Assembly: GCA_038063895.1 (NCBI GenBank)
Contig: JBBTUG010000006.1
Span: 6,701-70,700, forward strand
Direction: 5' to 3'
DNA from: Patescibacteria group bacterium
Lineage (GTDB): Bacteria > Patescibacteriota > WWE3 > JAMCXX01 > JBBTUG01
DNA length: 64,000 bases
A program made the translations under genes and the position numbers. Of the stretch, positions 9,005-55,427 are shown piece after piece. The stretch's first letter is position 1. Every line of letters starts with the position of its first letter. Below the pieces are notes generated by a model. That model did no database searches. It was given only the letters and a program-made list of their open reading frames with translations, and was not told the origin of the DNA.

Positions 9005-10849
9005 ATGATTTTAACGGAAACAAAAAAGGGAAACAAAGTAAACAAAAGGAAACTGAAAATGGTATCGGTTATCATAGGTCTCTTGGCCGTTTTCGGCTAT
9101 TTTTTCGCTCTCAGTCCGGTTTTGGCAACGTTACATACCGCAAAACTGCTAACAGCCGATTTCAAATACTTTAAGGACGGAATTATTCTGCAAAATCTTC
9201 CCCAAATGAAAAATGCCATCACCGCCGCCGAAAAAGATGCGAAATCTCTAAAAAATAACTCCCAGCTGCTGGTGTGGCTAAATGTCGTTCCGGTGCTTAA
9301 CGGTTACTACAGTGACCTGGTCAACGGGTCGGAGGCACTTCTGCACGGGGTCCGCGCAGTGGGGTTGGTTCTGGATGCGGCTACGCCTGAGGCCGCCAGT
9401 TTGGGTTTTTCCCCTTCGGGGGCTAAGATTCCGATTTCCGGCCAGGATAGAATTTCCGGCTTGGTTAAAATCGCCCCCCTGCTTAGCGGTCAGTATGAAG
9501 AAATCGCGGCGGAGCTTACGCAAATTCAGAATAGTTTTAACCGGATTGACCCGAATAGATACCCGGAAACCTATTCCGGAAAGCCCCTTCGGGGAATTCT
9601 TACAAGCGTTAGGGATGCTTTGGAAACCGTTGGCGGAAACTCTACCGATCTGAAGGCTTTTCTTGACGCTGTCCCCGAAGTCCTCGGCGCCACCGAGGCT
9701 AAGACTTACTTGGTTCTTTTCCAGAATGATAAGGAGTTGCGTCCGACCGGCGGCTTTTGGACAGCTTACGCGCTCCTTCGGATGGAAAAAGGAAAGATTG
9801 TCAGTATTCAGGCCGGTGATATTTATTTTTTGGATATCGACAACCGTGTGGCTTTTTACCCGACCCCGCCGGCGGTTATCCAAAAATACTTAAAGCTTGA
9901 TAAGTGGTATATCCGAGATACAAATATGTCCCCCGATTTCCGGAAATCGATTGAGCTGTTTAACGAGTTTTGGGCCCGGGTTCCGGGGGTTCCGAAAACG
10001 GACGGCATTTTCGCTATTGATACCGCCTTTGTTCAGGGACTGTTAACGGTTTTAGGAGATATTAAAATACCGAATTACGAAACGTTTACCAGCGAGAATG
10101 TGGTTTATCAGTTGGAGCTGGTGGCAAACGTTTTGGGCAGTCGGGAGGAGAAACGCGGAGGCCGCAAGGATATCATCGGGGTTTTGATGCGGGAGATGAT
10201 GTCGAAAGCTTTCGCCCTCCCGTCCAATCAATACGATAAGATTATCGGGAAAGTAATGGATATGGCCGTGAAGAAACACCTGCTTTTGTATTTTAATAAT
10301 CCTGAAGCCCAGGCGCTGGCGGAGAAATATAATCTGGCCGGGCGGATTAATGATTTCGACGGCGATTATCTTCACGTGAACGATGCGAATTTAGGCGGAC
10401 GGAAAGCGAATATGTATATGAAGGAAGATATAAGCAAAGAGATAAAAATGTTGGGCGGCGGCAAAGAGGTTTTAAGCACGGTGACCGTTGATTATGAAAA
10501 TACCGGCAGTTACAACGCCGATTGGAATACCGGCTATCGGGATTACGTCCGGGTTTATGTTCCGAAAGGCTCCGAGCTGATTTCCGGTTCGGGTTCTTTG
10601 GAAACGATTACCAGCGGCGAAGACTTAGGCCGAACCTACTTCGATGCCTATATGGCCGTCAATCCGTTACAAAAAGCAAAGCTGACTTTAACTTACCGGT
10701 TGCCTTCGGGTCTGATAAAGAACGGACAGCCGTACCAATTGCTTATCCAGAAGCAGCCCGGAACCGACGGGCAGAACTACACGGTTTCTGTTGGAAACAA
10801 GAAAGAAAGTTTTGTTTTAGAGACCGACCGGATTGTGGAAATTAAATAG
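9005..10849 (+). CDS. DUF4012 domain membrane-anchored protein
   Basis: One N-terminal TM helix plus 'FQNDKELRPTGGFWTAYALL', the characteristic DUF4012 E(L)RPTGGF motif. The gene typically neighbours a priming sugar transferase, as it does here. Confidence 0.55.
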   Translation: MILTETKKGNKVNKRKLKMVSVIIGLLAVFGYFFALSPVLATLHTAKLLTADFKYFKDGIILQNLPQMKNAITAAEKDAKSLKNNSQLLVWLNVVPVLNGYYSDLVNGSEALLHGVRAVGLVLDAATPEAASLGFSPSGAKIPISGQDRISGLVKIAPLLSGQYEEIAAELTQIQNSFNRIDPNRYPETYSGKPLRGILTSVRDALETVGGNSTDLKAFLDAVPEVLGATEAKTYLVLFQNDKELRPTGGFWTAYALLRMEKGKIVSIQAGDIYFLDIDNRVAFYPTPPAVIQKYLKLDKWYIRDTNMSPDFRKSIELFNEFWARVPGVPKTDGIFAIDTAFVQGLLTVLGDIKIPNYETFTSENVVYQLELVANVLGSREEKRGGRKDIIGVLMREMMSKAFALPSNQYDKIIGKVMDMAVKKHLLLYFNNPEAQALAEKYNLAGRINDFDGDYLHVNDANLGGRKANMYMKEDISKEIKMLGGGKEVLSTVTVDYENTGSYNADWNTGYRDYVRVYVPKGSELISGSGSLETITSGEDLGRTYFDAYMAVNPLQKAKLTLTYRLPSGLIKNGQPYQLLIQKQPGTDGQNYTVSVGNKKESFVLETDRIVEIK

Positions 10850-11570: not shown

Positions 11571-12167
11571 ATGCCACACTCCATTCTACTAAGTAACTTA
11601 CCGCCTAGCGGCGGGTCTTTAACCCTTCGGGACAAAATTCTTTTGAGTCTTTTGTGTGTTGGGGCGATGGTTGAGACTACTTTAGCTGAAGCGTCTACGC
11701 CACAGACTATTGAATATGCTCTAAGTTCCTTGGAGCGGAAGGAGTTTATTCGAAAGAAGCGAGGTTCGATTAAGAGTACAATTTCTTACCTACTGGCCGA
11801 AAAACTTCTTCGGGCCAGCGGGTCGTATCGCAAGAGATCATTTCAGCTGACCGAGGAAGGGTTGAATACTCTTTTTTCCAAGTTTCCCACCCTTAAGTAT
11901 CGGAAGTTTAATTGGGACGGTCGTTGGCGTGTTGTGATTTATGATATCCGTGAACAGGATCACCGTCTCAGAGACCGGTTAAGAACAAGGCTTAAATCCC
12001 TCGGTTTTAAGTTTATGCAAAAAAGTGTTTGGATCTCGCCATATCCGATGGAAGCGGATCTGGAGGATTTTCTCCGAAAAGAAAATCTTTGGGGAAGAAT
12101 CTTCGTCTTTTCGGCGACTTTGCCGAAAAAGGAAAATCTAAAAATAATCCGATTATTTAATCTTTAA
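11571..12167 (+). CDS. PaaX-like family protein (winged-helix plus PaaX_C-like domain), paralog 1
   Basis: 'WDGRWRVVIYDIREQDHRLRDRLRTRLKSLGFKFMQKSVWISPYP' matches the PaaX C-terminal domain signature (W.G.W..V.Y.IPE..R..R..L...GFG.LQ...WISP). Confidence 0.5.
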   Translation: MPHSILLSNLPPSGGSLTLRDKILLSLLCVGAMVETTLAEASTPQTIEYALSSLERKEFIRKKRGSIKSTISYLLAEKLLRASGSYRKRSFQLTEEGLNTLFSKFPTLKYRKFNWDGRWRVVIYDIREQDHRLRDRLRTRLKSLGFKFMQKSVWISPYPMEADLEDFLRKENLWGRIFVFSATLPKKENLKIIRLFNL

Positions 12168-23871: not shown

Positions 23872-25283
23872 TGACCCTCCAGGAACTGAAGGATAAAAAA
23901 ATTGCGATTCTCGGATGCTCGATTGAGGGCCTATCCTCAGCTAGGTTTCTTTTAACTCACGGAATCAGTTTTACGGTTTTGGATAAACAGTGTTTGTCTG
24001 AATTAGGAGAAGAAGCCTTACAGTTATCTGGTAACCAATTAATTAATTGGGAACTTGGCGAAAATCATTTAGACCGCCTCGAAGATTTTGAGGTTATCTT
24101 CCGCACTCCCGGTTTTCCTTTGTGGAATCAACGTTTGCAGGCGGCCCTTGCCGCCGGGGCCGAGGTTACTTCCCAGACTAAATTATTCTTTAGTCTCTGT
24201 CCGTGTCCGGTGATCGGAGTTACCGGAACTAAAGGGAAAGGAACAACAGCCACCCTCATTTCTCTGATGCTTAAAAAATCCGGCCGAGATGTTTACCTGG
24301 GCGGGAATATCGGGACTCCTCCGCTTGATTTTCTAGATAAGTTAAATCCCAGTTCCTTTGCGGTTTTAGAATTAAGTTCGTTTCAGCTCGAGGATCTTAA
24401 GGTCAGTCCAAAAATCGCCGTAGTTTTATTGATCACGGCGGATCACCTAGTCTCGCAGTCTTCGGAAAGTCCCAACTATCACAAGACGGTAAAGGAGTAT
24501 GTCACGGCCAAAAAGAAACTGGTTCAGTTTCAAACAATTTCGGATACGGCGGTTATTAGCGCAGATTGGGAAACCAGTTTAGCGATGGAAAAGGAAACAG
24601 CGGCGGAGGCGTATTTTTTCAGCCGACAGCGCGAGGTTAAGCGGGGAACCTTCGTCCAGGATAAAACGATTATTTTTGTTGAACAAGGCAGGAAGGAAGA
24701 TATTATCTCTGTTTCGGAGTTGCTTCTGCGCGGAGAGCACAACTGGGAGAACGTTTGCGCGGCCGTGACCGTCGCAAAATTGTGCAAGGTGGAAAATACG
24801 GCAATTAGCTCGGTGCTTCGGACTTTTAGAGGTTTAGCGAACCGCCTGGAGTTTGTTGCTAGTGCGGGTGGAGTTAATTATTACAATGACTCTTTTTCCA
24901 CGACTCCGGAAACGGCCGTTGCCGCCCTGCGCGCATTTTCTGAGCCGCTGATTATTATTCTCGGCGGATCGGAAAAAGGGTCTGATTATACAGAGCTTGG
25001 CCGGGAACTTCACGAGGCGAAAAACTTAAAAGCCGTTATTCTGATCGGAAATACGGCCGGTAAAATTGAGTCAGCGGTGGTCCGCGCGGGAGGTTTCCCT
25101 CCGAAAATTGAAGTTATAAAAAATCTGCCGGATATGCCGTCAATTGTTTCCGCGGCAGCGAAAATTTCAGCACCCGGAGATGTTGTTCTTCTCTCGCCCG
25201 CCTGCGCCTCTTTCGATATGTTTAAAAATTATAAGGAACGCGGAAATCAATTTACACTGGGGGCTAAAAAAATATGCGCCTAG
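23871..25283 (+). CDS. murD: UDP-N-acetylmuramoylalanine--D-glutamate ligase
   Basis: 'IAILGCSIEGLSSARFL' and a 'GVTGTKGKGTTATLI' P-loop. Confidence 0.85.
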   Translation: MTLQELKDKKIAILGCSIEGLSSARFLLTHGISFTVLDKQCLSELGEEALQLSGNQLINWELGENHLDRLEDFEVIFRTPGFPLWNQRLQAALAAGAEVTSQTKLFFSLCPCPVIGVTGTKGKGTTATLISLMLKKSGRDVYLGGNIGTPPLDFLDKLNPSSFAVLELSSFQLEDLKVSPKIAVVLLITADHLVSQSSESPNYHKTVKEYVTAKKKLVQFQTISDTAVISADWETSLAMEKETAAEAYFFSRQREVKRGTFVQDKTIIFVEQGRKEDIISVSELLLRGEHNWENVCAAVTVAKLCKVENTAISSVLRTFRGLANRLEFVASAGGVNYYNDSFSTTPETAVAALRAFSEPLIIILGGSEKGSDYTELGRELHEAKNLKAVILIGNTAGKIESAVVRAGGFPPKIEVIKNLPDMPSIVSAAAKISAPGDVVLLSPACASFDMFKNYKERGNQFTLGAKKICA

Positions 25284-26827
25284 ATAAACTTCTTGCCGAC
25301 TTCGGAATTACCGAAACAGATGGCGGACCGGAAATTATCGGGATTACTGACGACTCCCGAAAAGTAAAACCAGGATATTTGTTCGTAGCAGTAAAAGGGT
25401 TGGAGCATGATGGGCACAAATACATCGAACAGGCAATTATGGCGGGAGCGTGTGCGGTTGTGTTCGATGTAAAGTCAAAAGTTTCCGCCCAAGGCGGATC
25501 CGCCGAGGGAGGAAAAAGTCAAAAGTCAAAATTTTCAGGCACTATTTTCGTGGGTGTGAGAGGTTCAAGAAAGGCCCTAGGGCTTCTTTGGGCGGCGTGG
25601 TACGGGTATCCGGCCAAATCGTTAAGAGTCATCGGTGTGACCGGGACGGACGGAAAAACAACGACAGCTAACCTTATCTACCACCTGTTGAAATCGGCCG
25701 GAAAAAAAGTTGGCCTAATCTCGACGATCAACGCTCAAATCGGGAACGATAGTTTTGAGACCGGTTTCCACGTGACCAACCCGGAGCCGGAGTTGCTCCA
25801 AAAGTTTTTAAGATTAATGGTTGATCGGGGCACGGAGTTTGCGGTTTTGGAAGTAACCTCGCACGGAATTGATCAGGAACGGATTGCCGGAATCGGTTTT
25901 GAGATTGCCGTGGTTACGAACGTGGCGCGGGAGCATCTCGATTACCACAAAACGTATGAAAATTATCTAAATACAAAAGGGCGTCTACTCGCTTCCGACA
26001 AGGTAAGTATTCTCAATCGGGACGACAGCTCCTTCTCTTATTTAAAGAGTGTTTCCGGAGGCGAGGTGCTCAGCTACGGCATTCACCAAAAAGCTGATTT
26101 TCAAGCCACCAAGGTTACGCTACTTGGGGAATCCGCCGTATTTACCTTGGAGCCCGGTTCCGTTGAAGTAAAAATTAATCTGCCCGGAGAATACAATATC
26201 GCTAACGCTCTTGCGGCGGCGGCCGCGGCCTTCACTGTTGGGCTGAGTGGGAAGCAAGTCGCTGCAGGGCTTCAAAGTTTCCAGACGCTTCCGGGGAGGT
26301 TTGAGGAGATAAAGACCGGACGGGATTTCCGGGTCGTGGTGGATTTCGCGCATACGCCCAACGCGCTTGAGAGTGTCCTGTCTATTAGCCGTAAAATCCT
26401 GATCATACCCACACCCTTAGGGTCAAGGCTTCCCGACCCTAAGGACGAGAAACCGCAAGAGCCAAAATTAATTGTAGTTTTCGGGTGCGCGGGGGAACGG
26501 GACAGTGGGAAGCGGCCGCTGATGGGTGAGATTGCAGGCCGGTTGGCGGATATCTCGATCCTGACCGCGGAGGATCCCCGGCGCGAGGATGTTAACGGAA
26601 TTATTGAGCAAATTGCTGCGGGATGCCAAAAATCGGGTGAGCATATATTTATTAAAGAACCTGACCGGCGGAAGGCGATCGAATTGGCAATAAATATGGC
26701 CAAGGCCGGCGACTTAATTATTATCACCGGCAAGGGGCACGAGAAATCAATGTGCTTCGGGACAACAGAGTATCCGTGGAGTGATCAGGAAGTAGCAAAG
26801 GGTATTTTAGAAAGGAATAACAAATAA
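25274..26827 (+). CDS. murE: UDP-N-acetylmuramoyl-L-alanyl-D-glutamate--2,6-diaminopimelate (or L-Lys) ligase; carries in-frame repeat insertions
   Basis: 'VIGVTGTDGKTTTANLI' P-loop and 'VTNVAREHLDYH'. An 'EDPRRED' motif retains the Arg typical of DAP-type enzymes. Confidence 0.85.
   Translation: MRLDKLLADFGITETDGGPEIIGITDDSRKVKPGYLFVAVKGLEHDGHKYIEQAIMAGACAVVFDVKSKVSAQGGSAEGGKSQKSKFSGTIFVGVRGSRKALGLLWAAWYGYPAKSLRVIGVTGTDGKTTTANLIYHLLKSAGKKVGLISTINAQIGNDSFETGFHVTNPEPELLQKFLRLMVDRGTEFAVLEVTSHGIDQERIAGIGFEIAVVTNVAREHLDYHKTYENYLNTKGRLLASDKVSILNRDDSSFSYLKSVSGGEVLSYGIHQKADFQATKVTLLGESAVFTLEPGSVEVKINLPGEYNIANALAAAAAAFTVGLSGKQVAAGLQSFQTLPGRFEEIKTGRDFRVVVDFAHTPNALESVLSISRKILIIPTPLGSRLPDPKDEKPQEPKLIVVFGCAGERDSGKRPLMGEIAGRLADISILTAEDPRREDVNGIIEQIAAGCQKSGEHIFIKEPDRRKAIELAINMAKAGDLIIITGKGHEKSMCFGTTEYPWSDQEVAKGILERNNK
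26412..26447 (+). repeat. 36-bp palindromic element, copy A (in-frame inside murE)
   Basis: Arms 'ccttagggtc'/'gaccctaagg' with loop 'aaggcttccc'. It encodes PTPLGSRLPDPK. Confidence 0.8.
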
Positions 26828-29680: not shown

Positions 29681-30835
29681 ATGAAAGAAATGGAAAACGA
29701 AAAGAAAAACATCGGAGTAATATTTGGCGGAATGAGCGCCGAATGCGAGGTATCTTTAGCAACGGGGAGATACGTTTACTCGCTGCTAAATAATAAAAAA
29801 TTTACCGGAACGCCATTTTATTTGGATAAAAAAGGCACTCTTTGGCAGGTTCCAGACAAACTGGTAATCCAAAATACGACGACGGATATCGAGCAGCGCC
29901 TGGAGAAGGACGCGAGCCGGGTAAATTTCGAGGACCTTCCCGGGAAAGTCAGCTGTGTTTTTAATGCGCTGTTGGGCAAGTACGGCGAGGATGGCTGTTT
30001 TCAGGCGATCTTGGAATTGTTGAAAATTCCTTACACCGGTTCAGGAATTCTCGCTTCCGCGTTGGGGATGGATAAAAAAGTCCACAAGAAAATGCTCTCC
30101 GGGGCGGGGTTTTTAGTGGCCAAAGATCTATTAATTCGTAATTCGGAATTCGATATTCGGAAAGTTACGGAAAAAGTTTCCAGGGAAATCGGTTTCCCCT
30201 GCGTTGTGAAGCCGACCCGGGAAGGTTCAAGTATGGGAGTGTCGGTGGTTAAAGAAGAAAAGGGTTTGGAAACAGCGTTCGAGTACGCCTTTAAGTATGA
30301 TCAGGAGGTTCTTGTCGAAGAGTATCTGAAAGGGATGGAGTTTACCTGCGTGGTTTGGGGCAACGACGATCCGAAAGCTATGCTCCCTACCGAAGTCGTG
30401 TTCGAGGGCGATTTTTTTACGTATGAAGGTAAATACATGCCGGGAAAAACCCAGACGATTACGCCCGCCCGGCTTTCGGAAGAGGGCTTGGCCGAGATAC
30501 AGCGCCAATCCGTGGCGATTTATCAGCTGATTGGTTGCCAGGGCTATGGCCGGGTTGACGGCTTTGTCGTTCCTAAGACCCTAAAGGTCGGGGAGCCCAG
30601 ACCTTTAGGGTCTTTGAGTTTGTCTGATATCTCAATTTACATCGCTGAGCCGCACACGGGAACAATTATGGTTCCTTCGTCTTTCGTTTTTCAACAGGCG
30701 GCGAAGTTCCGGATTGATCTGTCCACAGAATTCCATGGAAAAAAAGGTTCGATTCCGATGACCCCGCGCATTTTGGTAACAAAAATTATTGAGTTAGCCT
30801 TCGAAGCGTTTAGCAATAAGAAAGGATTATTATGA
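29681..30835 (+). CDS. ddl: D-alanine--D-alanine ligase (paralog 1; Lys-Tyr retained at the K215/Y216-equivalent position)
   Basis: ATP-grasp motifs 'FPCVVKPTREGSSMGVS' and 'FFTYEGKYMPG' (K at 30431-33, Y at 30434-36). The C-terminus is extended by a repeat insertion. Confidence 0.8.
   Translation: MKEMENEKKNIGVIFGGMSAECEVSLATGRYVYSLLNNKKFTGTPFYLDKKGTLWQVPDKLVIQNTTTDIEQRLEKDASRVNFEDLPGKVSCVFNALLGKYGEDGCFQAILELLKIPYTGSGILASALGMDKKVHKKMLSGAGFLVAKDLLIRNSEFDIRKVTEKVSREIGFPCVVKPTREGSSMGVSVVKEEKGLETAFEYAFKYDQEVLVEEYLKGMEFTCVVWGNDDPKAMLPTEVVFEGDFFTYEGKYMPGKTQTITPARLSEEGLAEIQRQSVAIYQLIGCQGYGRVDGFVVPKTLKVGEPRPLGSLSLSDISIYIAEPHTGTIMVPSSFVFQQAAKFRIDLSTEFHGKKGSIPMTPRILVTKIIELAFEAFSNKKGLL
30577..30612 (+). 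repeat. 36-bp palindromic element, copy B (in-frame inside ddl paralog 1)
   Basis: Perfect 13-bp arms 'gaccctaaaggtc'/'gacctttagggtc' with loop 'ggggagccca'. It encodes KTLKVGEPRPLG. Confidence 0.85.
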
Positions 30836-31884
30836 GCGGCATATTAAGAATTGGTTTATTTATCGGCGGGCTGTCTTCGGAAAAGGAAATCTCTTTGGAA
30901 TCAGGGCGTCACGTCTACAACAGTCTTGACCGGGAAAAGTATGAAGTTCTTCCGATCTTTGTCGATAATGAAGCCCATCTTTGGGAGATTGAGGAGGGGT
31001 TGCTGTGGAAAAATACCACCACAGATCTTAAAGATGCCCTCGGTAGCGGGGGAAGCCGGGTTTACTACGAAGATTTAAGAAATAAGATTGATTTTGCTTT
31101 TATTTGCCTCCACGGAAAATACGGCGAGGACGCCTTCCCGGGACTTTTTGAGATACTGGGAATTCCCAACAACGGCGCCTCCGTTTTGGGAGGAGCATTG
31201 TCAATGGACAAATACCGCCAAAGGATGGTTTTGCAGGCGGCTGGGATCGATACTCCAAAGTATTTTCCAATCGAAAATTCCAAGTTCCAAATTCCAAATT
31301 CCAAAATATTTGATGAAGTAGAAGCTGTGTTAAGTTACCCGGTAATGGTGAAGCCGTCGCGGGAGGGAAGTTCAACCGCACTGCATAAGGTGAATAACCG
31401 GGGAGAACTTGAAGCCGCACTTTCCGATGCCTTTATTTACGATAAAGTCGCCTTGGTCGAGGAAGTTTTGGTCGGAACGGAGTTAACGACATTGGTTTAT
31501 GGCGAAGGCGAAAATATTAAAGCCCTGCCGCCATCGGAACTTCTCCGGGGAGGGGATTTCCTTACCGCCCAGGAAAAATTTCTGCCGGGTGGGGCGCAGA
31601 TGATAACCCCGCCGCGGCTACCTGTGGAAGTAGTTGAGGAGGTAAAGAGAGCAGCGGTGAATACGTTTCAGGCGTTAAGTCTTAAGGTCTATAGCCGGAT
31701 CGATTCATTTTACGTTCCGGGTCGGGGAGTGGTAATTTTGGAGCCGAATAACCCGCCGGCGATGACGCCCTCGACGGCTTTGTGGCTTGAGGCTGCCGAA
31801 GAAAACCTTAACGCTTCCCAATTGTTAGATGATCTGATCCGTATCTCCCTTGTCCTCCACGCCGCCAAACTCGGCCCACTTTAA
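30832..31884 (+). CDS. D-alanine--D-X ligase (Ddl paralog 2; Phe replaces Tyr at the Y216-equivalent position)
   Basis: 'YPVMVKPSREGSSTA' and 'FLTAQEKFLPG' (F codon at 31579-31581). About 350 aa. Confidence 0.75.
   Translation: MSGILRIGLFIGGLSSEKEISLESGRHVYNSLDREKYEVLPIFVDNEAHLWEIEEGLLWKNTTTDLKDALGSGGSRVYYEDLRNKIDFAFICLHGKYGEDAFPGLFEILGIPNNGASVLGGALSMDKYRQRMVLQAAGIDTPKYFPIENSKFQIPNSKIFDEVEAVLSYPVMVKPSREGSSTALHKVNNRGELEAALSDAFIYDKVALVEEVLVGTELTTLVYGEGENIKALPPSELLRGGDFLTAQEKFLPGGAQMITPPRLPVEVVEEVKRAAVNTFQALSLKVYSRIDSFYVPGRGVVILEPNNPPAMTPSTALWLEAAEENLNASQLLDDLIRISLVLHAAKLGPL
31278..31306 (+). repeat. Heptanucleotide tandem repeat (ttccaag/ttccaaa x4) inside the ddl paralog 2 coding sequence
   Basis: Seen directly. 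It encodes 'KFQIPNSKIF'. The unit length is not a multiple of 3. Confidence 0.7.
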
Positions 31885-32958: not shown

Positions 32959-33840
32959 ATGAAGATAAGAAAGTGTAAATTAGAAGGTGACTCTAGGGAG
33001 TCCTGCCGCGAGCTCTTCTTAGTTGCCGGCTGGGATATAAAGACTACCAACTCCTTTTCCCGGTTTCTGGCCGAATTGGATGCAACCCCGGCCTCCAAGA
33101 TATTCATCGATTCAATGATCAAGTTTAAAGAAATGTATCCGCCGCTTCGAACCGGTCCCCGTCAGGTTGACTATTTAGGGCTCCTTCGCGGCGAAAATGA
33201 GTATAGGGCAATGAAACGGGCTCAATTTTACCTCAATAAGAAAGACCTTGTGAAGGTTTCCGGTGGACTAGGCGGCAAAAGATTAGTTTTGACAACCCGG
33301 GCCCACCGTATTTTTTACGAAGACTACCCTTTGGCCAAACTACGTCGGGAAAAGTGGAATGGGCTGTGGACAATAGTGATGTATGACTTACCGGAGAAAG
33401 AAAAAAGCTTTCGGGAGTATTTAAGACTAAAGTTAAAAGGACTTGGTTTCGGCAGTCCGCAGGAAAGTGTTCTAATTTCGCCATTGCCAATTGCCGCTCC
33501 GACCCAGGCGTTAATAGAGGGGGAGCAAGCTGAAAGATACGTTTGGGTGGTTTCGGCTCAACGGGTTTTAGGTTTGGACAATCGCGAGGTGGCGGAGAGA
33601 GCGTGGAAACTTGATGAACTTAACATGCTTTATAAATGTCTCTTAAAAGTTTCTCCGGTCGTTAAGGGGAAGAATGATAAGAGTCTTCTCGATGCGTGGC
33701 GCCGCTGCTTTTTAGCGCTGGACAATGTTGACCCGTATCTGCCGCTTGAACTTCTTCCTAAAGATTGGCAAGGAGAGAACTGCCGAAAAGTGGCTGAATC
33801 GTCAGGGTTCGCCGGGTTAATAAAGTCAATTTTTCAGTAA
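32959..33840 (+). CDS. PaaX-like family protein, paralog 2
   Basis: 'WNGLWTIVMYDLPEKEKSFREYLRLKLKGLGFGSPQESVLISPLP' is the same PaaX_C-like signature as the gene at 11571. Confidence 0.5.
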   Translation: MKIRKCKLEGDSRESCRELFLVAGWDIKTTNSFSRFLAELDATPASKIFIDSMIKFKEMYPPLRTGPRQVDYLGLLRGENEYRAMKRAQFYLNKKDLVKVSGGLGGKRLVLTTRAHRIFYEDYPLAKLRREKWNGLWTIVMYDLPEKEKSFREYLRLKLKGLGFGSPQESVLISPLPIAAPTQALIEGEQAERYVWVVSAQRVLGLDNREVAERAWKLDELNMLYKCLLKVSPVVKGKNDKSLLDAWRRCFLALDNVDPYLPLELLPKDWQGENCRKVAESSGFAGLIKSIFQ

Positions 33841-33913: not shown

Positions 33914-35383
33914 TTATCTATAAATATCAGGGAGGTCGTTTTCGAAGAGGATCAGAGAGTTGGGTTTGACTAATTGCGGGATTATCTCTTTGGTTGCCTG
34001 ATCGAGGGAGTCAGTGATGAATAATCTCTGACCTATTGTTCCGTTGTTCCATTGTTTCATTGCTGTGGCGTTGCTCCAGCCGCCTTCTCTAATTCCTTGC
34101 AGAAGGGCTGCACGGTTGGTTTTGTTGACGATCACGGCGTAATCAAAATTTTCGGCAATCAGTTCTCCTAACTTTTTATTCTCTTCGAACTGCTGTTTTC
34201 CCAATTCCACTATTCCCGGAGTCACTATTATTTTTGGGTAGTTGGGTAAACGGGTAATCAGTTTTATTGCGGCCCGGGCGCCCTCCGGGTTGCTGCTGTA
34301 GGCGTCATCAATTATTAACGAGTTTTCGGGGCCGTGGATTAGTTGTAAGCGGTGTTCCGGTGGGCTGACCTTGAATAGGCCGTGCCTTATTTCCTCTTCA
34401 GTTAAGCCTAAATATGTTCCTACAGCAATAGCCGCCAGGGCATTGCTGACGTTGTGGTCTGCCGGGAGGTTGAGGGTGTAAGTGTCTTGTTTTACCCTGA
34501 ACTCGGAGGATTCGGGAGAGGATGAAATAATTTCCGCCTGAAGATCGGCTTCAACTCCGTGCGGTTTGCTAATCCGGGAGTAACCTACTTTATTTATTAT
34601 AGTTTTTAGATAGAGTTCTACGCATGGTTGGGAGTACAGATTGAAAACCGCCAAGCCCTCCTCCGGAAGGGATTGAATCAATTCCGATTTAGCTTCCACG
34701 ATATTTTCCAAACTCCCGAACCGCTCCAGGTGCTGATTAGTTATTCCGGTGATAATCCCGATTTTAGGTCGAACCATCCGGCAGAGTTCCGCAATCTCGC
34801 CTTTTTTGTAGGCGCCCATTTCGACGATAAAGACTTCGTGCTCCGGCTTTAATTTCATATTGATGATACCGGCTATGCCGAAAAGCGTATTGTAGCTTTT
34901 TGGAGTCGCCAAAACTTCGTACTTCGTTGCGAGAACAGTTGCTAGGATTTCCTTCACCGTGGTTTTGCCGTAACTGCCGGTAATTCCGATGACCAATAGG
35001 TTTTTGTGTTCCGTGATAATTTTTTGGGCACGGAGAACCGTCCGGCGGCGGTTGATGATTTCGTATGGCCGGAGAACTAGTAAAGATATTAGAAGTAACG
35101 GCTGGGGGAACAGCTGAAGAAGAATAACGATAATTACACCCTTAAGGTCAAGGCTCCCCGACCTTAAGGGTGTGGCCCAGGGCTGAAATAGAAATATGGG
35201 AGCTAGGCTGAGGGCAGTGGCGCATATGAAAAGAAACCTGGCCTTCGAAGTCCACACCAGCGCCTTTTTCTTTTCCAGTCCTAAACGGAACAAATTTTGA
35301 ACGGTCCATTTAATGAAGCGGACTAGGTCGTATTCCAAAACCTGCAGGGCGTAAAGCTGGTTGTAAAGCGGGATGTACCTCAT
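33914..35383 (-). CDS. murF: UDP-N-acetylmuramoyl-tripeptide--D-alanyl-D-alanine ligase, with an N-terminal hydrophobic extension containing a repeat insert
   Basis: 'LLVIGITGSYGKTTVKEIL' P-loop and 'IGIITGITNQHLERFGS'. The start is set at Met 'MRYIPLYNQL' (35383) because the longer ORF overlaps the upstream hydrolase gene. The two genes overlap in an ATGA arrangement. Confidence 0.85.
   Translation of the reverse strand: MRYIPLYNQLYALQVLEYDLVRFIKWTVQNLFRLGLEKKKALVWTSKARFLFICATALSLAPIFLFQPWATPLRSGSLDLKGVIIVILLQLFPQPLLLISLLVLRPYEIINRRRTVLRAQKIITEHKNLLVIGITGSYGKTTVKEILATVLATKYEVLATPKSYNTLFGIAGIINMKLKPEHEVFIVEMGAYKKGEIAELCRMVRPKIGIITGITNQHLERFGSLENIVEAKSELIQSLPEEGLAVFNLYSQPCVELYLKTIINKVGYSRISKPHGVEADLQAEIISSSPESSEFRVKQDTYTLNLPADHNVSNALAAIAVGTYLGLTEEEIRHGLFKVSPPEHRLQLIHGPENSLIIDDAYSSNPEGARAAIKLITRLPNYPKIIVTPGIVELGKQQFEENKKLGELIAENFDYAVIVNKTNRAALLQGIREGGWSNATAMKQWNNGTIGQRLFITDSLDQATKEIIPQLVKPNSLILFENDLPDIYR
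35137..35172 (+). repeat. 36-bp palindromic element, copy C (in-frame inside the murF N-terminal region)
   Basis: Perfect arms 'cacccttaaggtc'/'gaccttaagggtg' with loop 'aaggctcccc'. It encodes PLRSGSLDLKGV in murF. Confidence 0.85.
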
Positions 35384-36105
35384 AAAATAAATTCCGAGAT
35401 TAATTTTGCGACCAGAGCCGGTTGTTCTATAAACGGGAAATGGCCGCACTGCGGGATAATTTTTAAGACCGAGTTTTTTATTCCCCTTTTCATAATCGCC
35501 GCGTCGCGGATGGGAGTTTCGGGATCTTCCTCGCCCCAAATAAGTAACGTTGGAGCCGCAATATTGCTCAACTTAGTCCGAAGGTCCTCTTCCACAATTA
35601 TAGCCATTGTCGCCTTCATCGGACCGGCGGCGCGGTAATCTTCCGATTGGAAGGATTTTGCCAGAGGTTTTTTAATAAATTCGGGAGAATTCGAAAAAGC
35701 TTTCGACATTAGAAGTTTCGTTTGGGTGAGGATGTCGCGGCGGCGGATTCCCGCGCTGTCAATCAAAATCATTTTCTTTACTCCGTTATATTCCAGCGCG
35801 TAGGCGAGTGCAATTTTCCCGCCAACCGAGTGTCCCAATAAAATGGGTGATTCGATTTCCAGTTCCTTAAAAAATTGATTTAATAAGGCGGCGTAATCGC
35901 GGCTGGAAAAAGGGGTTGCCGGAACCGAGCTTTCTCCGAAACCGGGCAGGTCCAAAAAGATCATTTGGAAAGGGAGCGCCGCGAGGTAAGGTTTTAAACT
36001 TTCCCAAATCTGCAGATTAGCTCCCCACCCGTGCAAAAAAACAATTTGTTCTCCGCGCCCGTAAACCTCGAAGTTGATATTCAGTCCCTTGATTGAGATG
36101 TTCAT
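35380..36105 (-). CDS. Alpha/beta-hydrolase fold protein
   Basis: 'VFLHGWGANLQIWE' and the nucleophile elbow 'GHSVGG'. 241 aa. Confidence 0.7.
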   Translation of the reverse strand: MNISIKGLNINFEVYGRGEQIVFLHGWGANLQIWESLKPYLAALPFQMIFLDLPGFGESSVPATPFSSRDYAALLNQFFKELEIESPILLGHSVGGKIALAYALEYNGVKKMILIDSAGIRRRDILTQTKLLMSKAFSNSPEFIKKPLAKSFQSEDYRAAGPMKATMAIIVEEDLRTKLSNIAAPTLLIWGEEDPETPIRDAAIMKRGIKNSVLKIIPQCGHFPFIEQPALVAKLISEFIL

Positions 36106-36119
36106 GAGTCGTCGCCGCT

Positions 36120-36155
36120 CACCTTAAAGATCATGGCTCTTCGACCTTTAAGGTG
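36120..36155 (+). repeat. 36-bp palindromic element, copy D (intergenic, in the 5' UTR of the hydrolase-murF operon)
   Basis: Arms 'caccttaaagatc'/'gacctttaaggtg' with one mismatch, and loop 'atggctcttc'. Confidence 0.8.
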
Positions 36156-36314
36156 TACGTATCTATTCTACCGTTTCCGCCGCCCTTCTGTCACAACGGT
36201 ACGTTTAGGGGAAGAGGTATAAACACGTCGAGGAATCACGTGACGCAATAAGTTAAAAATAAACTCTACAAATTTAACCGCTGATCGGCTGAATATTTTG
36301 TAGAGTCGATGCTC

Positions 36315-36764
36315 CTATAAAGGCATGTTTTTATTACGCCACTTTTCGGCCTGTTCTAAAATCTCGGGAAGATTAATAATTGTTCCCGCCTGAGCCTCTA
36401 ATATGTCGAGTCTTTCCTTAGTTACGAAAGTTTCGGGGTTTGGGCTTTCGATCGTCTCTTGAGTTTGGACATCCACAATTGACCAATGAAGAAGTTGTGC
36501 CAGGCGGGCGATATTGCGCAAGATTCTTTGATAAATCTCTTTATCATAGTCGTAGACATTGATGATGTATTCGCCGTTTTTCAGAAGCGTAAATTCCAGC
36601 GGATCTCTTTCATCACCATGCTTTAGAGAAAACGAACTGATTTCTCCTTTATCTTCCTGGTGTTGAAGGATCTCAAATTCGGGGGAAAGAGCAGCTTGGA
36701 GGTTGCTGTAGGTTAGTCTTCCGCTTGTTTTATCTTTAGTTTGAAGACAATAATCAAGACTCAT
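36315..36764 (-). CDS. Hypothetical cytoplasmic protein (149 aa)
   Basis: ORF with a downstream hairpin-plus-T-run terminator on the minus strand ('actctacaaa'/'tttgtagagt'). No recognisable family. Confidence 0.4.
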   Translation of the reverse strand: MSLDYCLQTKDKTSGRLTYSNLQAALSPEFEILQHQEDKGEISSFSLKHGDERDPLEFTLLKNGEYIINVYDYDKEIYQRILRNIARLAQLLHWSIVDVQTQETIESPNPETFVTKERLDILEAQAGTIINLPEILEQAEKWRNKNMPL

Positions 36765-36850
36765 ACGCCTAAACTAGCTTCTCAAATATTTATTAAAAAA
36801 ACAAGGTGGCAAAAGCTGTAAGCTGTTGCCACCTCGCTAAGACGAACTAT

Positions 36851-37465
36851 TCAATTGTCAAAAACGTCGCACCGAAGGGGATCGGCGTTGGGACGAAGGT
36901 TTTTGTCGAGACTCCAGATCCCTATCAAGAACGAACCACCAGCCTCGCCCTGCAAATCCTGCACCACGAATCTCGATCCGGCACCGTTCTTGGCGAGGTA
37001 TTGTCTAATTTCTTTTTGGCACCCCGCTGATGTCGTTTCATACGACCGAATCGCCGCAAATCCCGTTTGATCTTGCTGGCCGGCATAGAAACGTCCCTTC
37101 AGGACGATTTCCGTGCCGTTGTCATTCGCAAACACCTGCTCCACCAACCAGTAGTCATAGAAAGCGTTCAGGCCACTTTCGATCACTGGCTTGGTAGGTC
37201 GCGACTCGCGGTTCAAATTCACGACGAGTCCTGTTCCTTTGGTGCTCTTCAACTCGGGTTTAGTGGTACTCGTACCAGTGGTCTCTCCTTGAGACTCAGC
37301 TGGCAAAAGCGATGAATAGATCATCGCGACTTCCCTCTTGACCACAACGAGGTCCCAGTCGCCGGTCTTCCAACCGTAGACGGGAAGCGCGATCAGAGTT
37401 GCTACCACTAAAATCGCGAGCCAGATCATGAACACCGTTCCGAGTACGTTCAGAAACTTTTTCAC
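36851..37465 (-). CDS. Hypothetical membrane-anchored extracytoplasmic protein (204 aa)
   Basis: N-terminal signal-anchor 'MKKFLNVLGTVFMIWLAILVVATLIALPV'. No recognisable family. Confidence 0.4.
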   Translation of the reverse strand: MKKFLNVLGTVFMIWLAILVVATLIALPVYGWKTGDWDLVVVKREVAMIYSSLLPAESQGETTGTSTTKPELKSTKGTGLVVNLNRESRPTKPVIESGLNAFYDYWLVEQVFANDNGTEIVLKGRFYAGQQDQTGFAAIRSYETTSAGCQKEIRQYLAKNGAGSRFVVQDLQGEAGGSFLIGIWSLDKNLRPNADPLRCDVFDN

Positions 37466-37731
37466 TTTGCCTCCTCAGGCGTATTCCGTTCTTTGGGCGG
37501 AACACATTTGAATTTGGTTTGTGCGATAAACAATAAAGCCGTTGTTTCAGACTTTGGAGAGGGGCAATTCTTCAGAACCTTGTAACAGCGGCCATTGTTT
37601 CTCTCTCCTCTTATTCGGTTATTAATTTGCTTACCATTATATCATTATACCATAAATAAGGCTTATAGTCAATTGGTAGTTTTAGCTAATAAGTCGGTGA
37701 AGCATGGGGCTGTGAGCTTTTGGGTTGAAGA

Positions 37732-51006: not shown

Positions 51007-51032
51007 TTTATCCTTAACATCCGATAAAAAAA

Positions 51033-51068
51033 CACCCTAAAGGTCGGTGGAGGTTGACCTTCAGGGTG
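51033..51068 (+). repeat. 36-bp palindromic element, copy E (intergenic, at the rpmA 3' end; terminator-like)
   Basis: Arms 'caccctaaaggtc'/'gaccttcagggtg' with one mismatch and loop 'ggtggaggtt'. It is followed by 'taaatgttttt'. Confidence 0.75.
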
Positions 51069-51080
51069 TAAATGTTTTTC

Positions 51081-52406
51081 TCAACGATCCTCTCTCGGGC
51101 AGTCATCGAACGCAGGGTTCGAGCATACCGTCATCCGCCTTCCCATCTTCATTGGTGCGTGGCAGAACGGACACTGTCCAAGTCCCGTATTAACTTTCGG
51201 CGTCTTAATTCGTTGGCTGCCGACCGGAACGTAAGGAACCCCAAGATTCCACATCCCCGGCTGTGCAACTGACTTCGGACACAGGTGGTTCGCGAAAGCA
51301 AAGTCGCAGCCAGGGCATTGCCACTCTGAGGGGCGGGCAGGAAAGCCTTCCCGTTGATATTTCTGGTAAGTCGCAATCGCCAATTTCAGGCTGACCAGCG
51401 TTTCTTTCCAGAGCCGTGAATCGAAGGGAATGGGTATCTTTTCGAGGCGCATCGGATTGAGGGTTAGTCGGTGGACCCACAACGAAACGTTCTCCGCTTT
51501 AATCCCAAGTCCGGAAAAAGCCTGCATTGCCCAGCTGGCATACAGCGCTAATTGGAGCTGACAGTCCTGATGGTCCAGCTCGGAGTGGATATCGATGCCG
51601 GTCACTTTGTGGTCGATGATCCGGACCGAATACTGGCCGTCGTGCTCAGTGAGAATAACGAGATCAACGGCTCCGTTTAATCCCCATTTTTCTCCCTCAG
51701 TCATCGTGAGGCCGGTACCGGAAAGCAGCCAGTTGAGGTCAATAACCGGGAGACGCATCTCCGCGTCCCACCAGACCAGCTTCGTACCGCTGCGGGCTAA
51801 GGCTTCTCCGTAGGCTTTGACAGACACCATCTGGTGATGATGCCAAAGGAAACGGATAACCTGCTCCAGGTAGTAACGCATCGTCGGAATTTCCCAATCG
51901 TTTTGGGTGCCTATTCTGTGCCGGAAAAACTTTTCATCCGTAAACTTTCCTAAGATGTTGCTCAACCCCCACCGCGTCCGAAAAAATCCGACTTCGCTTA
52001 GTGACTTTTGTTCGGACAGCTGACGGGCGAGGTGGTAAACGGTACCGAAAGCGTTGCCCGGAGAGCTGGGTTGGCATGGATGTTCTTTCCGCAGCTGGTA
52101 GGCAAGCGGACAACCAAATCCCAGCATCTGAACCGCGAGCGTCGGGGTCATCCGGTTTGCCGGCCGGTGTTTTAATATCACCTCGCTGGTCGGTATGCAG
52201 TTTTCGCAAAGCCGTGATTTCGGCGCTTTCTTCCGAGGCAAGCCCGGTAAACTTTTTCCGGGTAAATAAAGGCGGCCGGTTCGTAAAGAGAAATTCCCAC
52301 AGCGGGCGCAAACCGCCGGGTGGTTCCAATTCCGGGATCTGACTAAAGCCGGCTTACGCATCGCTAAATGCGGCTGCATAAGCACCAGTTGTGTCGCTAA
52401 AGTCAT
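51081..52406 (-). CDS. PD-(D/E)xK (RecB/Cas4-like) nuclease family protein with Fe-S-type cysteine cluster
   Basis: 'GAVDLVILTEHDGQYSVRIIDHKVTG' supplies nuclease motifs II and III. 'QLQLALYA' is the RecB-family QhxxY motif. The N-terminus has 'CARCG' and the C-terminus 'CPGCDFAFANHLC'. Confidence 0.5.
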   Translation of the reverse strand: MTLATQLVLMQPHLAMRKPALVRSRNWNHPAVCARCGNFSLRTGRLYLPGKSLPGLPRKKAPKSRLCENCIPTSEVILKHRPANRMTPTLAVQMLGFGCPLAYQLRKEHPCQPSSPGNAFGTVYHLARQLSEQKSLSEVGFFRTRWGLSNILGKFTDEKFFRHRIGTQNDWEIPTMRYYLEQVIRFLWHHHQMVSVKAYGEALARSGTKLVWWDAEMRLPVIDLNWLLSGTGLTMTEGEKWGLNGAVDLVILTEHDGQYSVRIIDHKVTGIDIHSELDHQDCQLQLALYASWAMQAFSGLGIKAENVSLWVHRLTLNPMRLEKIPIPFDSRLWKETLVSLKLAIATYQKYQREGFPARPSEWQCPGCDFAFANHLCPKSVAQPGMWNLGVPYVPVGSQRIKTPKVNTGLGQCPFCHAPMKMGRRMTVCSNPAFDDCPREDR

Positions 52407-53224: not shown

Positions 53225-54514
53225 ATGAACCTTCGCGTTAAAAAAGTGGCCGGGAATACGTTGTTCCAATTAGCTGGAAAGGCGGTTTCAATCACCTGTT
53301 CGCTGCTGGCGACGGCGTTAATTACCCGCCGGTTTGGTGAGAATGGCTACGGCCTGTTTGCCCTAATGACGACTTTCGCCGCCTATTTCTACCTGGTGGT
53401 GGATTTCGGCATTAATGCCATCGTGATCCGGGCGGTGACGGAAAATAAGGAAAAGATCGCCGATTACTTCCGCAACCTCTACACTTTCCGTTTTTTGTTC
53501 TCTTTAGTTATCTTTTTAGTTGTTCTTTGCCTTCTGCCCCGGATTAATTTTAAAACCTCCGAACTCAGTCTTGTCCGGTGGGGGATTGCGATCAGTTTAT
53601 TTACGGTTATTTCCCAATCCCTTTATATCTCCGCCAACGCGATCTTCCAAAAAATATCCCGCTACGATCTTTCCAACCTCGCCTTAACCGCCGGAAATAT
53701 TCTGGCCCTACTGCTGACCCTTCTCTTCCTTTTCCTAGGCAAAGATTTGCTGTGGATGGTAGGGGCGACGGTAGTGGGAGCCTTTTTGTCCGTGGCTTTT
53801 TCCTTTGCGCTGATCCGGCCTTTCGTGCACTCCCTTCGGCCGTCGTTCGAGACGAAAGTGTGGAAAGAAATATTACTGCCGTCCTTGCCGGTAGGACTGG
53901 GGCTAATCACGATGGTGATTATGGCCAAGACGGATATGTTTTTGCTCTCAACAATTACTTTGCCCTCAGCTTTGGGCTATACTAACGGCCAGGCTTTAGG
54001 CTTCTACGGTCTGGCCTACAAAGTTTTTGAGACCGCCCTGGTTTTCCCGACCTTCTTTATCAACGCCCTCTACCCGTTACTCTTGGAGGATCATTTTTCC
54101 GACCGGGAGAAACTTAAAAACACCGTGAAGAAATCGGCTCTGTTTCTCTTTCTCATCGGGCTGGTGGCAGCTATTGTAGGCATTATTTTCGCCCCCTTTG
54201 CTATTACGGTTCTGGGTGGGAGCCGTTTCTTACCCGCCGTCGCGCCGCTGCAAATTCTCCTGCTGTCGCTGCCGATCTTCTTTCCTTCGGCTCTGTTTGT
54301 CTGGCTGTTAGTTACGCTAGGGCGGGAAAAATATCTGCCCTTAATTTACGCGTTCGGATCCGTATTTAATATCGCCGGCAATCTGTATTTTATTCCCCGT
54401 TACGGTTTTCTCGCTTCCGCGTGGCTGACCGGAATTACGGAAGTAATTGTTACCGTTTTGACGGCCTATTTATCTTTAAAAATACTTTTTGCCAAGGAAG
54501 GTTCCCGTGCTTAA
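53225..54514 (+). CDS. wzx: Polysaccharide flippase (Wzx/MOP superfamily)
   Basis: 429 aa with about 12 TM segments. The N-terminus 'LRVKKVAGNTLFQLAGKAVSITCSLLATALITRRFGENGYGLFAL' is a polysaccharide_synt signature. An extended -10 'TGcTATAAT' at 53205-53213 suggests a leaderless transcript. Confidence 0.7.
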   Translation: MNLRVKKVAGNTLFQLAGKAVSITCSLLATALITRRFGENGYGLFALMTTFAAYFYLVVDFGINAIVIRAVTENKEKIADYFRNLYTFRFLFSLVIFLVVLCLLPRINFKTSELSLVRWGIAISLFTVISQSLYISANAIFQKISRYDLSNLALTAGNILALLLTLLFLFLGKDLLWMVGATVVGAFLSVAFSFALIRPFVHSLRPSFETKVWKEILLPSLPVGLGLITMVIMAKTDMFLLSTITLPSALGYTNGQALGFYGLAYKVFETALVFPTFFINALYPLLLEDHFSDREKLKNTVKKSALFLFLIGLVAAIVGIIFAPFAITVLGGSRFLPAVAPLQILLLSLPIFFPSALFVWLLVTLGREKYLPLIYAFGSVFNIAGNLYFIPRYGFLASAWLTGITEVIVTVLTAYLSLKILFAKEGSRA

Positions 54515-55427
54515 TCCCCTGATATCCATTGTTATTGCCTCAAGCCGAAAAGATAGGAATAAGCTTTCGGCGTGTTTGGATTCCATTTACAAGGGATCTT
54601 TTCCGGCTGCTTCTTTTGAAGTTATTGTTGTCGACAGCGGGGCGGGGGACGAGGCAAAAGATTATCTTTTGGAGACAGCGAAAAGTCGCCCCAACCTTGT
54701 GCCTGCCTTTCCCGGCTTTGGTAATATCGGTCCGGCGCGGGCGCGAAATATTGGGATTAAGCTGGCCAAGTCGTCCTTGGTGGCTTTCACAGATGATGAT
54801 ATTTCGGTTGATCCGCAATGGCTGGAAAAGATTACTAAGGCTTTTCTTGAGCATCCCGAAGTGGCCGCTGTTGGCGGAATGACTTTGCCCCCGGACTCCT
54901 TGAGGCGAAATCCGTTTGCCGAATACGAATCGTCTATCTACCAACGCTATCTGAAAAATGGTTGCGCGGGCAGTTACTTATCAACGACGCGGGACGAGCA
55001 CCCGGTATTTACCGGCAATATTGCTTATCGGAAGGAGGTTTTAGAAAAAGCCGGGGGTTTCAGCGAAAATTTTCCGCCTTTTGTCTATGGGGAAGATGGG
55101 GATTTAAAGGAACGGGTGCTAAAAATGGGCGGCCGGTTTTTGTACATCGACTCGGTAAATTACCACAATACGGAGTACAGTCTCGCCAGCTTTTGGCAAA
55201 AAGAGGAGAAACGGGGGGCGGGGATTTTGCGCTATCGGAAAGACCACTACGGGACGTCTAGGCTTACACCTTTAAGATCGGGGAGCCGTGACCTTAAAGG
55301 TGTTTTGCATATGGTTATGAACTTAATACACCTTAAAGGTGTAAAAAATATTATGGGTATGTTTATTCTGGGTTTGGCGGTTGTCGCCCGACAAGTGGGG
55401 AAAATTCGTTACTATGGAAAAGTCTAA
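54489..55427 (+). CDS. GT2 family glycosyltransferase (3' end altered by palindromic-element insertions)
   Basis: 'ISIVIASSRKDRNKLSACLDSI...FEVIVVDSGAGDE...AFTDDDISVDPQW'. The C-terminal roughly 50 aa are encoded by repeat copies F and G. Confidence 0.6.
   Translation: MPRKVPVLNPLISIVIASSRKDRNKLSACLDSIYKGSFPAASFEVIVVDSGAGDEAKDYLLETAKSRPNLVPAFPGFGNIGPARARNIGIKLAKSSLVAFTDDDISVDPQWLEKITKAFLEHPEVAAVGGMTLPPDSLRRNPFAEYESSIYQRYLKNGCAGSYLSTTRDEHPVFTGNIAYRKEVLEKAGGFSENFPPFVYGEDGDLKERVLKMGGRFLYIDSVNYHNTEYSLASFWQKEEKRGAGILRYRKDHYGTSRLTPLRSGSRDLKGVLHMVMNLIHLKGVKNIMGMFILGLAVVARQVGKIRYYGKV
55267..55342 (+). repeat. 36-bp palindromic element copy F (55267-55302) plus a solo arm G (55329-55341), in the 3' end of the GT2 ORF
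   Basis: Arms 'cacctttaagatc'/'gaccttaaaggtg' with loop 'ggggagccgt'. A solo 'caccttaaaggtg' follows. Together they encode TPLRSGSRDLKGV...HLKGV. Confidence 0.8.

Follow-up and report, generated by a model that had tools for sequence, protein, structure and literature searches.

We report here that a palindrome lying in the gene for a MurF-like ligase, in a 64,000-nucleotide stretch of DNA from a Patescibacteria group bacterium (contig JBBTUG010000006.1; the whole stretch is called the window below), is probably a member of a lineage-specific family of 38-bp hairpin repeats. The family is similar to the repetitive extragenic palindromic (REP) sequences and the Rickettsia palindromic elements (RPEs), and its copies appear to be tolerated in protein loops and to be under constraint at the nucleotide level. 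The palindrome, designated c3, had been called "copy C" in an earlier note on this DNA. The repeat family implied by that name was recovered in our analysis, both as an excess of the core 11-mer and as six copies detected with a covariance model.

The element is a perfect palindrome at positions 35136-35173 of the window, with a 14-bp stem and a 10-nt loop (38 bp in all), and its plus strand reads ACACCCTTAAGGTC-AAGGCTCCCC-GACCTTAAGGGTGT. The earlier note had given 35137-35172; the perfect palindrome is there, and its true span is one base wider on each side. It lies in frame in the minus-strand open reading frame (ORF) 33914..35383, where the codons ACA CCC TTA AGG TCG GGG AGC CTT GAC CTT AAG GGT GT encode T71-PLRSGSLDLKG-V83 (TPLRSGSLDLKGV, residues 71-83), which bears out the claim that the palindrome is coding and encodes PLRSGSLDLKGV. 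The exact 38-mer has a single occurrence (0 expected by chance). Only two perfect hairpins with a 12-bp stem, c3 and c2, were found in the window, compared with a mean of 0.13 in first-order Markov resamples. The folding energy of the c3 RNA from the coding strand is -28.5 kcal/mol (z = -5.5 against shuffles).

The core 11-mer CCCTTAAGGTC, with one mismatch at most, occurs 10 times in the window, whereas 1.09 occurrences are expected and none of 100 shuffles reached 10. The covariance model, built from the intact copies, detected exactly six full copies (50-66 bits, E = 3e-18 to 2.6e-13); with one collapsed remnant, c7, these make up the family in the window. The family consensus is ACACCYTWAAGGTC-GGGGAGCCNT-GACCTTWARGGTGT. 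The loop is 10 nt long in all copies, and its sequence is mostly GGGGAGCCNN. Four full copies are in frame in the genes for MurE (c1), Ddl (c2), the MurF-like ligase (c3), and a GT2 glycosyltransferase (c6), and c4 and c5 are intergenic. All copies fold (-18 to -30 kcal/mol, z = -3.6 to -6.8); the outer left arm of c1 is degenerate, with 11 of 14 pairs formed. An Rfam scan of the window gave no match for the hairpins, and the only RNA gene was that for tRNA-Val.

The stems covary between the copies. Across copies, 94.4% of the stem cells pair, compared with 16-54% in slid controls, and changes on both sides of the stem are found at four positions (CG/UA, UA/AU, CG/GC, and AU/GC; 9 cells), a result matched by none of 500 shuffles. 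Each arm is itself nearly palindromic (core CCTTAAGG), and the arms thus have short direct repeats in common. As the inter-arm complementarity in c3 is 13/13 and the direct-repeat similarity only 8/13, the long hairpin is the right description. By eye, the arms also look like SD/anti-SD sequences and the loop like 16S helix 45, but no conclusion is drawn from this likeness.

Such palindromic half-sites could also be double-stranded DNA operators for a dimeric cell-envelope regulator, for example, one of two PaaX-like proteins, whose genes are at 11571..12167 and 32959..33840, one of them adjoining murF. The clustering of the copies in or near the division/cell-wall cluster and the position of c4 next to a promoter-like block are in keeping with this explanation. 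However, the arms change jointly while keeping their pairing (CG to UA, UA to AU, CG to GC), as is expected of a folded strand, and four of the six sites are deep in coding sequence, far from promoters; we therefore consider operators very unlikely. Separately, we observed that both PaaX-like regulators have a Cas2-like middle domain, and that one of them is convergent with the MurF-like gene and is the same neighbor in the related contigs L006 and L143.

We then compared the copies with the orthologous sites in related contigs (L001-L006 and L142-L145) and with database proteins (P0001-P0123). At the MurF site, the element is identical at 38 of 38 positions between the window and L001, whereas the identity is 70% in the remaining gene and 47.5% at third codon positions. 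In the 90-nt flanks of c3, the same pair is identical at 36/78 and 56/90 positions. Against these backgrounds, the full identity of the element has P ~1e-6 to 1e-10. The site in L002 is 33/38 identical, with both arms altered; in L003, 9 nt (AGG TCG GGG) are deleted; in L004, the identity is 24/38, with TCGGGGAG retained, though the gene is 82.7% identical to that of L001 (P = 0.003); and in L006, only a right-arm remnant, GAT TAT AAA GGT, is left. The presence of intact copies in three deep branches places the insertion at the MurF site in the common ancestor of this small clade of groundwater Patescibacteria. In the more distant relatives L142 and L143 (MurF 52-54% identical), no element was found with the covariance model. 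The Ddl site is 35/36 identical between the window and L003, and the site in L004 has equal length with the palindrome gone. For MurE, L004 has only a short decayed right half, and decayed versions of the GT2 site are present in P0122 and P0123. Depending on the lineage, then, the element is either maintained in its nucleotide sequence or lost.

The encoded peptide cannot explain this conservation, because synonymous sites are conserved and other copies are in other frames or are untranslated. The near-identity of the c3 and c6 peptides might point to a palindrome that arose by chance or to protein-level selection for a peptide motif, but the copies are significant at E <= 1e-13, the reading frame is another one in Ddl, the orientation is opposite in MurE, and two copies are non-coding. 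The chance that this explanation is correct is negligible.

In the main rival explanation, the hairpins act in cis as functional nucleic-acid structures, each of them selected at its own site, and a shared trans-acting reader accounts for their repetition. Ribosome pausing between membrane helices or domains, RNase processing or stability points in cell-envelope operons, and transcription termination would be examples of such roles. The complete identity of the element set against the divergence at third positions, the compensatory stem changes between copies, the terminator-like c5, c4 at the presumed 5' end of an mRNA, the presence of four of the six copies in mur/ddl genes (by our count), and the conservation of the c7 remnant (15/15) in three genomes all fit a functional hairpin. 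On the other hand, the element has decayed or is partially deleted in L003, L004, L006, L144, and L145 with the genes intact, and it is wholly absent in L142 and L143. The loop does not keep one orientation with respect to transcription (it is antisense in c1, and also in c5 if that copy is a terminator), the copies are at unrelated positions in unrelated proteins, and Rfam has no matching family. We consider this explanation unlikely on balance, although it is the most serious of the alternatives.

The coding copies sit in predicted loops (MurF-like ligase, MurE, and Ddl) or in the C-terminal tail (GT2). At c1, which falls at the start of domain 3, MurE has 16-19 residues that are missing from solved MurE structures, and its Pfam Mur_ligase_C match is split there. 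In Ddl, alignments to solved structures, like the Pfam match, stop at residues 293-310 (most at 296-299); as c2 corresponds to residues 299-311, they stop at or just inside the c2-encoded segment. The two Ddl paralogues are in tandem (29681-31884): in the first (384 aa), which has c2, the C-terminal domain match ends at profile position 162/204, and the second (350 aa) is canonical. The same Ddl pair is found in L004 and L005.

In sequences of the c3 and c6 types, frame 0 is the only open one in both orientations, and it is the frame used. The c2 copy is in frame 2 and departs from c3 exactly at the bases that give TAA or TGA in that frame; the stop-avoiding differences are the CTAAAG stems and the loop CCCAGACC, where the c3 type has CCTTGACC. 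The intergenic copies c4 and c5 have stops in frame 0. From this pattern of stops across frames, the coding copies are a filtered or adapted subset.

The MurF-like ORF begins with ATG (MRYIPL...). Its product matches PF08245 (Mur_ligase_M, 2.1e-38) and PF02875 (Mur_ligase_C, 9.6e-09) and has the P-loop GITGSYGKT, and the Pfam scan gave no match to PF01225, the canonical N-terminal Mur-ligase domain. The best NCBIfam family is murF (TIGR01143), with a score of 238.1 bits, below the cutoff of 288.6, and an alignment starting at profile position 66. The top 10 Foldseek matches of the AlphaFold2 model (pLDDT 87, pTM 0.85) in the PDB are all MurF (E = 1e-29 to 3e-22, about 380 columns). The model has a low-confidence coil at residues 66-79 between helices, and the hydropathy profile has hydrophobic segments at about residues 48-69 and 83-104, with peaks at about residues 49-67 and 85-103 and a minimum at residues 64-82, over c3. 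Both methods thus place a predicted hydrophobic helix on either side of c3, and c3 is predicted to encode the turn between the paired helices of the ligase's conserved membrane anchor. The earlier note had described a hydrophobic N-terminal extension of roughly 100 aa that typical MurF lacks. The region is indeed hydrophobic and foreign to canonical MurF; however, it replaces the canonical N-terminal domain and is not an add-on, and it comprises about 133 aa, of which only about 45 aa are in the two hydrophobic helices.

The full-length homologues (coverage 92-100%) extend to Caloramator, Gottschalkia, Thermoanaerobacterium, Poribacteria, and Anaerolineae, and conservation of the first 133 residues runs from Patescibacteria to Clostridia, Poribacteria, and Anaerolineae; the comparison with MurF orthologs that the note had called for thus found the region kept across phyla. 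By sequence comparison, the MurF-like ligase with a membrane anchor instead of the canonical N-terminal domain is a widespread subfamily in these four groups. The protein from the window and its homologues (P0002-P0120) have the motif QLYALQ.LEY ... KK.LVWT.KA and two or more hydrophobic helices. In a literature search on membrane-anchored MurF, nothing relevant was found. Like canonical MurF (UDP-MurNAc-tripeptide--D-Ala-D-Ala ligase; 4qf5, 1gg4), the protein has an ATP-binding domain with a GxxGKT P-loop and a C-terminal domain, MurF is its best match in both sequence family and structure, and its gene lies within a division/cell-wall cluster. It is unlike canonical MurF in its N-terminal region with two hydrophobic helices and in its score below the NCBIfam cutoff, and its role as a MurF is putative.

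The assignment of c3 to coding sequence depends on the start of this gene. If murF translation started downstream of the element, c3 would be a REP-like hairpin in a 5' untranslated region (UTR) or an intergenic region, and the hydrophobic extension would be an annotation artefact. REPs annotated inside the 5' ends of ORFs are often truly extragenic (PMC3733652), and a terminator scanner marked c3 as terminator-like on the minus strand. This weak point, which the earlier note itself had raised, was examined. Residues 1-69 are conserved across phyla, and L10, Q14, Y18, and K39, all upstream of c3, are invariant in an alignment of 29 sequences. The NCBI call of the identical 489-aa protein (P0001, annotated as Patescibacteria group bacterium) has the same start. 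The ATGA overlap with the upstream hydrolase gene, which the note had seen in the sequence, is syntenic, the same 4-nt overlap being called in the orthologous contigs L001, L003, L004, L005, and L143. The sole in-frame ATG, GTG, or TTG between c3 and the P-loop is a TTG five codons before GITGSYGKT, and initiation there would strip the whole region ahead of the P-loop; moreover, the AlphaFold2 helices are confident on both sides of c3. Because of the invariant residues upstream, the identical NCBI call, and the syntenic overlap, c3 is coding and not in the 5' UTR, and we regard a downstream start as highly improbable.

Table 1. Copies of the hairpin family and features of the hydrolase-murF locus (window positions)
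Feature	Position	Strand	Remarks
Copy c1	26411..26448	-	In frame in MurE (25274..26827 +), encodes TPLGSRLPDPKD; loop antisense to gene
Copy c2	30576..30613	+	In frame (not the frame of c3) in the first of two tandem Ddl paralogues (29681..30835 +); encodes KTLKVGEPRPLGS
Copy c3 (element under study)	35136..35173	-	Coding strand ACACCCTTAAGGTC GGGGAGCCTT GACCTTAAGGGTGT; 65.7 bits, E = 3e-18 (covariance model); matches family consensus exactly
Copy c4	36119..36156	-	Intergenic, 13 nt upstream of hydrolase ATG; -21.7 kcal/mol
Copy c5	51032..51069	+	Intergenic; -23.4 kcal/mol on minus strand
Copy c6	55266..55303	+	In frame, C-terminal tail of GT2 glycosyltransferase (54507..55427 +); encodes TPLRSGSRDLKGV; frame and orientation as c3
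Remnant c7	55328..55342		15-nt palindrome ACACCTTAAAGGTGT = c6 minus centre; encodes HLKGV; 24 nt downstream of c6
MurF-like ligase coding sequence, 489 aa	33914..35383	-	Membrane region aa 1-133, Mur_ligase_M 134-321, Mur_ligase_C 344-480
Predicted transmembrane helix 2, aa ~83-104, directly downstream of c3	35072..35137	-	Hydropathy peak 2.32; AlphaFold2 helices 80-91, 94-124
Predicted helix/transmembrane helix 1, aa 46-65, directly upstream of c3	35189..35248	-	Hydropathy peak 1.69; AlphaFold2 helix 46-65
ATGA start/stop overlap, hydrolase/MurF-like genes	35380..35383	-	ATG 35383-35381, TGA 35382-35380
Alpha/beta-hydrolase coding sequence, 241 aa, first of hydrolase-murF pair	35380..36105	-	Abhydrolase_1, 3.4e-32
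Promoter-like GTGACA-18-TAGAAT	36165..36194	-	Consensus match and conservation; putative function

If c3 belongs to a mobile repeat family, as we prefer, its spread would have been that of small repeat DNA, non-autonomous and copied in hairpin form, and copies in coding DNA would survive only where the loop is tolerant and the frame has no stops. What holds the intact copies would be a constraint on the folded nucleic acid, for which a trans-acting protein (a hairpin-specific HUH/RAYT-like enzyme) or conversion between copies are candidates. Some copies may also have acquired a role as RNA hairpins: c5 would serve as an intrinsic terminator, and c4 would form a stem-loop at the 5' end of the hydrolase-murF mRNA.

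On the minus strand, c5 starts 11 nt past the TGA of ORF 51081..52406(-), and its 14-bp stem is followed by TTTTTT (51026-51031). It thus resembles an intrinsic terminator and may act as one. The consensus terminator scanner passed over c5, its loop limit being 8 nt. The promoter-like block GTGACA-18-TAGAAT upstream of the hydrolase gene is conserved in L003 and recognisable in L001, L004, and L143; c4 starts 8 nt past the conserved -10-like box and would form the 5'-terminal stem-loop of the mRNA if transcription begins there. L003 has the promoter-like block without the c4 hairpin, that is, an empty site.

Around this locus, several minor features were observed. At positions 36106-37731 of the window, mraY and the hydrolase promoter are separated by about 1.5 kb of lineage-specific sequence with two hypothetical ORFs, 36315..36764(-) and 36851..37465(-), both without a Pfam match. 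In L003, mraY and the hydrolase promoter are adjacent, and the junction reads ...AAAAGCTCACAG|GATGTGACAG... An unrelated 14-bp palindrome, AGGTGGCAAAAGCT/AGCTGTTGCCACCT, is found at 36804-36834 between the two hypothetical ORFs. L142 has a different hairpin, GGGTTAGACCCTAAAAGGGTCTAACCC (9941-9967), between the hydrolase stop and the MurF start, and its core resembles the outer stem of c2.

Several observations weigh against a mobile repeat family and are gathered here. No transposase, RAYT (REP-associated tyrosine transposase), or integrase gene was found by Pfam and in gene tables in the window and about 15 kb of its flanks. Neither a recognisable target-site duplication nor a conserved flank was found around the copies, and a clean empty site is available for c4 only and for none of the coding copies. 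A length of 38 bp is not divisible by three, which leaves the exact inserted unit undefined. The known copies number only six or seven; they all fall between 26.4 and 55.3 kb, and four are no more than 10 kb from the mur/ddl cluster. This clustering differs from the even scatter expected of a prolific transposon. A scan of GTDB representative genomes with a stem-based IUPAC pattern did not find the family; in metagenome contigs, a permissive loop-anchored pattern gave no true member among the matches listed, after filtering; and viral contigs gave 0 pattern matches. The 38/38 identity over about 30% divergence exceeds what is predicted for neutral selfish DNA and fits a functional hairpin equally well. 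The GT2 site adds a further difficulty. All three GT2 orthologues are exactly 921 nt long, and in L144 the left arm is 13/14 identical while the loop and right arm are 7/24 identical, which is the chance level (Fisher P = 1.7e-4); simple insertion followed by uniform decay does not account for this site.

These data suggest that the GT2 site underwent an equal-length replacement (conversion from another copy) or has a history beyond insertion and decay. The c7 remnant is 15/15 identical in three genomes (55328-55342 in the window, 2229-2243 in L144, and 1116-1130 in L145), whose GT2 genes are about 76% identical. In L144, the solitary left arm pairs with c7 across 49 nt (covariance model, 31.6 bits). 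Hairpin-mediated inversion at this site was considered and rejected, as the L144 interior has no arm-like sequence.

The family is narrow and lineage-specific. There is no further copy in the 8.5 kb upstream or the 7 kb downstream of the window. The GTDB scan did yield 14 pattern loci (in Anaerolineae, Moraniibacteriota, and Bacteroidota), which we rejected: they are other palindromes with unrelated loops and no ACAC/GTGT ends. These loci (L007-L020) are palindromes on ACCCTTAGGGTC...GACCCTAAGGGT, with loops such as TCGCGAAGCG. Palindromes of the ACCCTTAGGGTC type gave six matches on four contigs in the Anaerolineales metagenome-assembled genome CAYSIV01 and also occur in one from Moraniibacteriota, and they may be separate repeat families. 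A DNA-uptake sequence was also rejected: a density of about 1 copy per 10 kb is much too low for one, and the copies arose as insertions, not as motifs formed by point mutation.

Documented in-frame palindromic repeats comprise the RPEs and the intragenic GTAG/CGTC REPs (PMC10969869, PMC3733652). RPEs are about 100-150 bp long, form ten families, and are restricted to Rickettsia (Ogata et al. 2000, 2002, via PMC10969869). Like RPEs, the present family consists of in-frame palindromes in unrelated housekeeping genes, read as an extra peptide at fold-compatible positions (MurF-like ligase, MurE, and Ddl), in a reduced genome, with orthologous copies common to related species and decaying over time; the predicted insertions are stop-free in four unrelated ORFs (MurE, Ddl, MurF-like, and GT2). 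The family differs from RPEs in its size (38 bp, 13 codons), its unrelated sequence, and its Patescibacteria host. In addition, the MurF copy is nucleotide-perfect over about 30% gene divergence, and we found no such report for RPEs in PMC10969869 and PMC3733652.

REPs and their REPIN-RAYT systems (PMC3733652) are likewise repeated imperfect palindromes of 20-40 bp with lineage-specific abundance. Many REPs lie a short way downstream of a gene and form RNA hairpins when transcribed; a minority are inside ORFs and are read through. Unlike these, the present family lacks the GTAG/CGTC tag and has ACAC/GTGT ends (a TCGTC is present by chance in the degenerate arm of c1 alone). Four of its six copies are intragenic and only c5 is in the classical 3' position; the copies are singletons without inverted dimers, about 79 kb contained no RAYT gene, and few copies are known so far. 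MITEs (miniature transposable elements with inverted repeats; Correia/NEMIS, ERIC, and BOX; PMC10969869) are also small and non-autonomous, have terminal inverted repeats, fold as RNA, and are able to fuse in frame to ORFs and to supply terminators or promoters. However, MITEs are typically 50-500 bp long with an internal region and a target-site duplication, whereas the present family is a single 38-bp hairpin with no duplication visible. As it fails the defining tags, size, or location of RPEs and REPs, we regard the family as a variant and not as a member of either.

In-frame palindromic repeats are best known from Rickettsia and from scattered intragenic REPs in Proteobacteria; the present family would extend them to ultra-small, uncultivated groundwater Patescibacteria. 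The element is near minimal, a single hairpin of 13 codons, and occurs in the essential peptidoglycan genes for MurE, Ddl, and the MurF-like ligase. The orthologous series (intact, compensated, 9-nt deleted, collapsed, and decayed) is a natural time course of the entry of such elements into proteins and their exit from them. The perfect conservation in some lineages versus the fast decay in others makes the choice between a selfish passenger and a maintained hairpin directly testable. Such elements can also mislead start-site calls and split domain matches, as was seen for the Pfam and NCBIfam matches of MurE and Ddl.

A more speculative possibility, to which we give little weight, is that the hairpins are a maintained signal system in a small Patescibacteria clade: a 38-nt stem-loop with a conserved GGGGAGCC loop, placed in cell-envelope coding sequences, a 5' UTR, and a terminator. 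If so, a lineage-specific hairpin-binding protein or a domesticated HUH enzyme would read the hairpins or keep them intact, and loss of this factor in sister lineages would explain the joint decay of all copies there.

The end of the window (59687-64000) is defence-related or mobile-looking, with genes for AbiEii, a PhdYeFM antitoxin, a Bro-N protein, and a Type III restriction-modification methylase. Past the window end, the gene table of L141 lists another methyltransferase, a helicase, and a PD-(D/E)XK protein.

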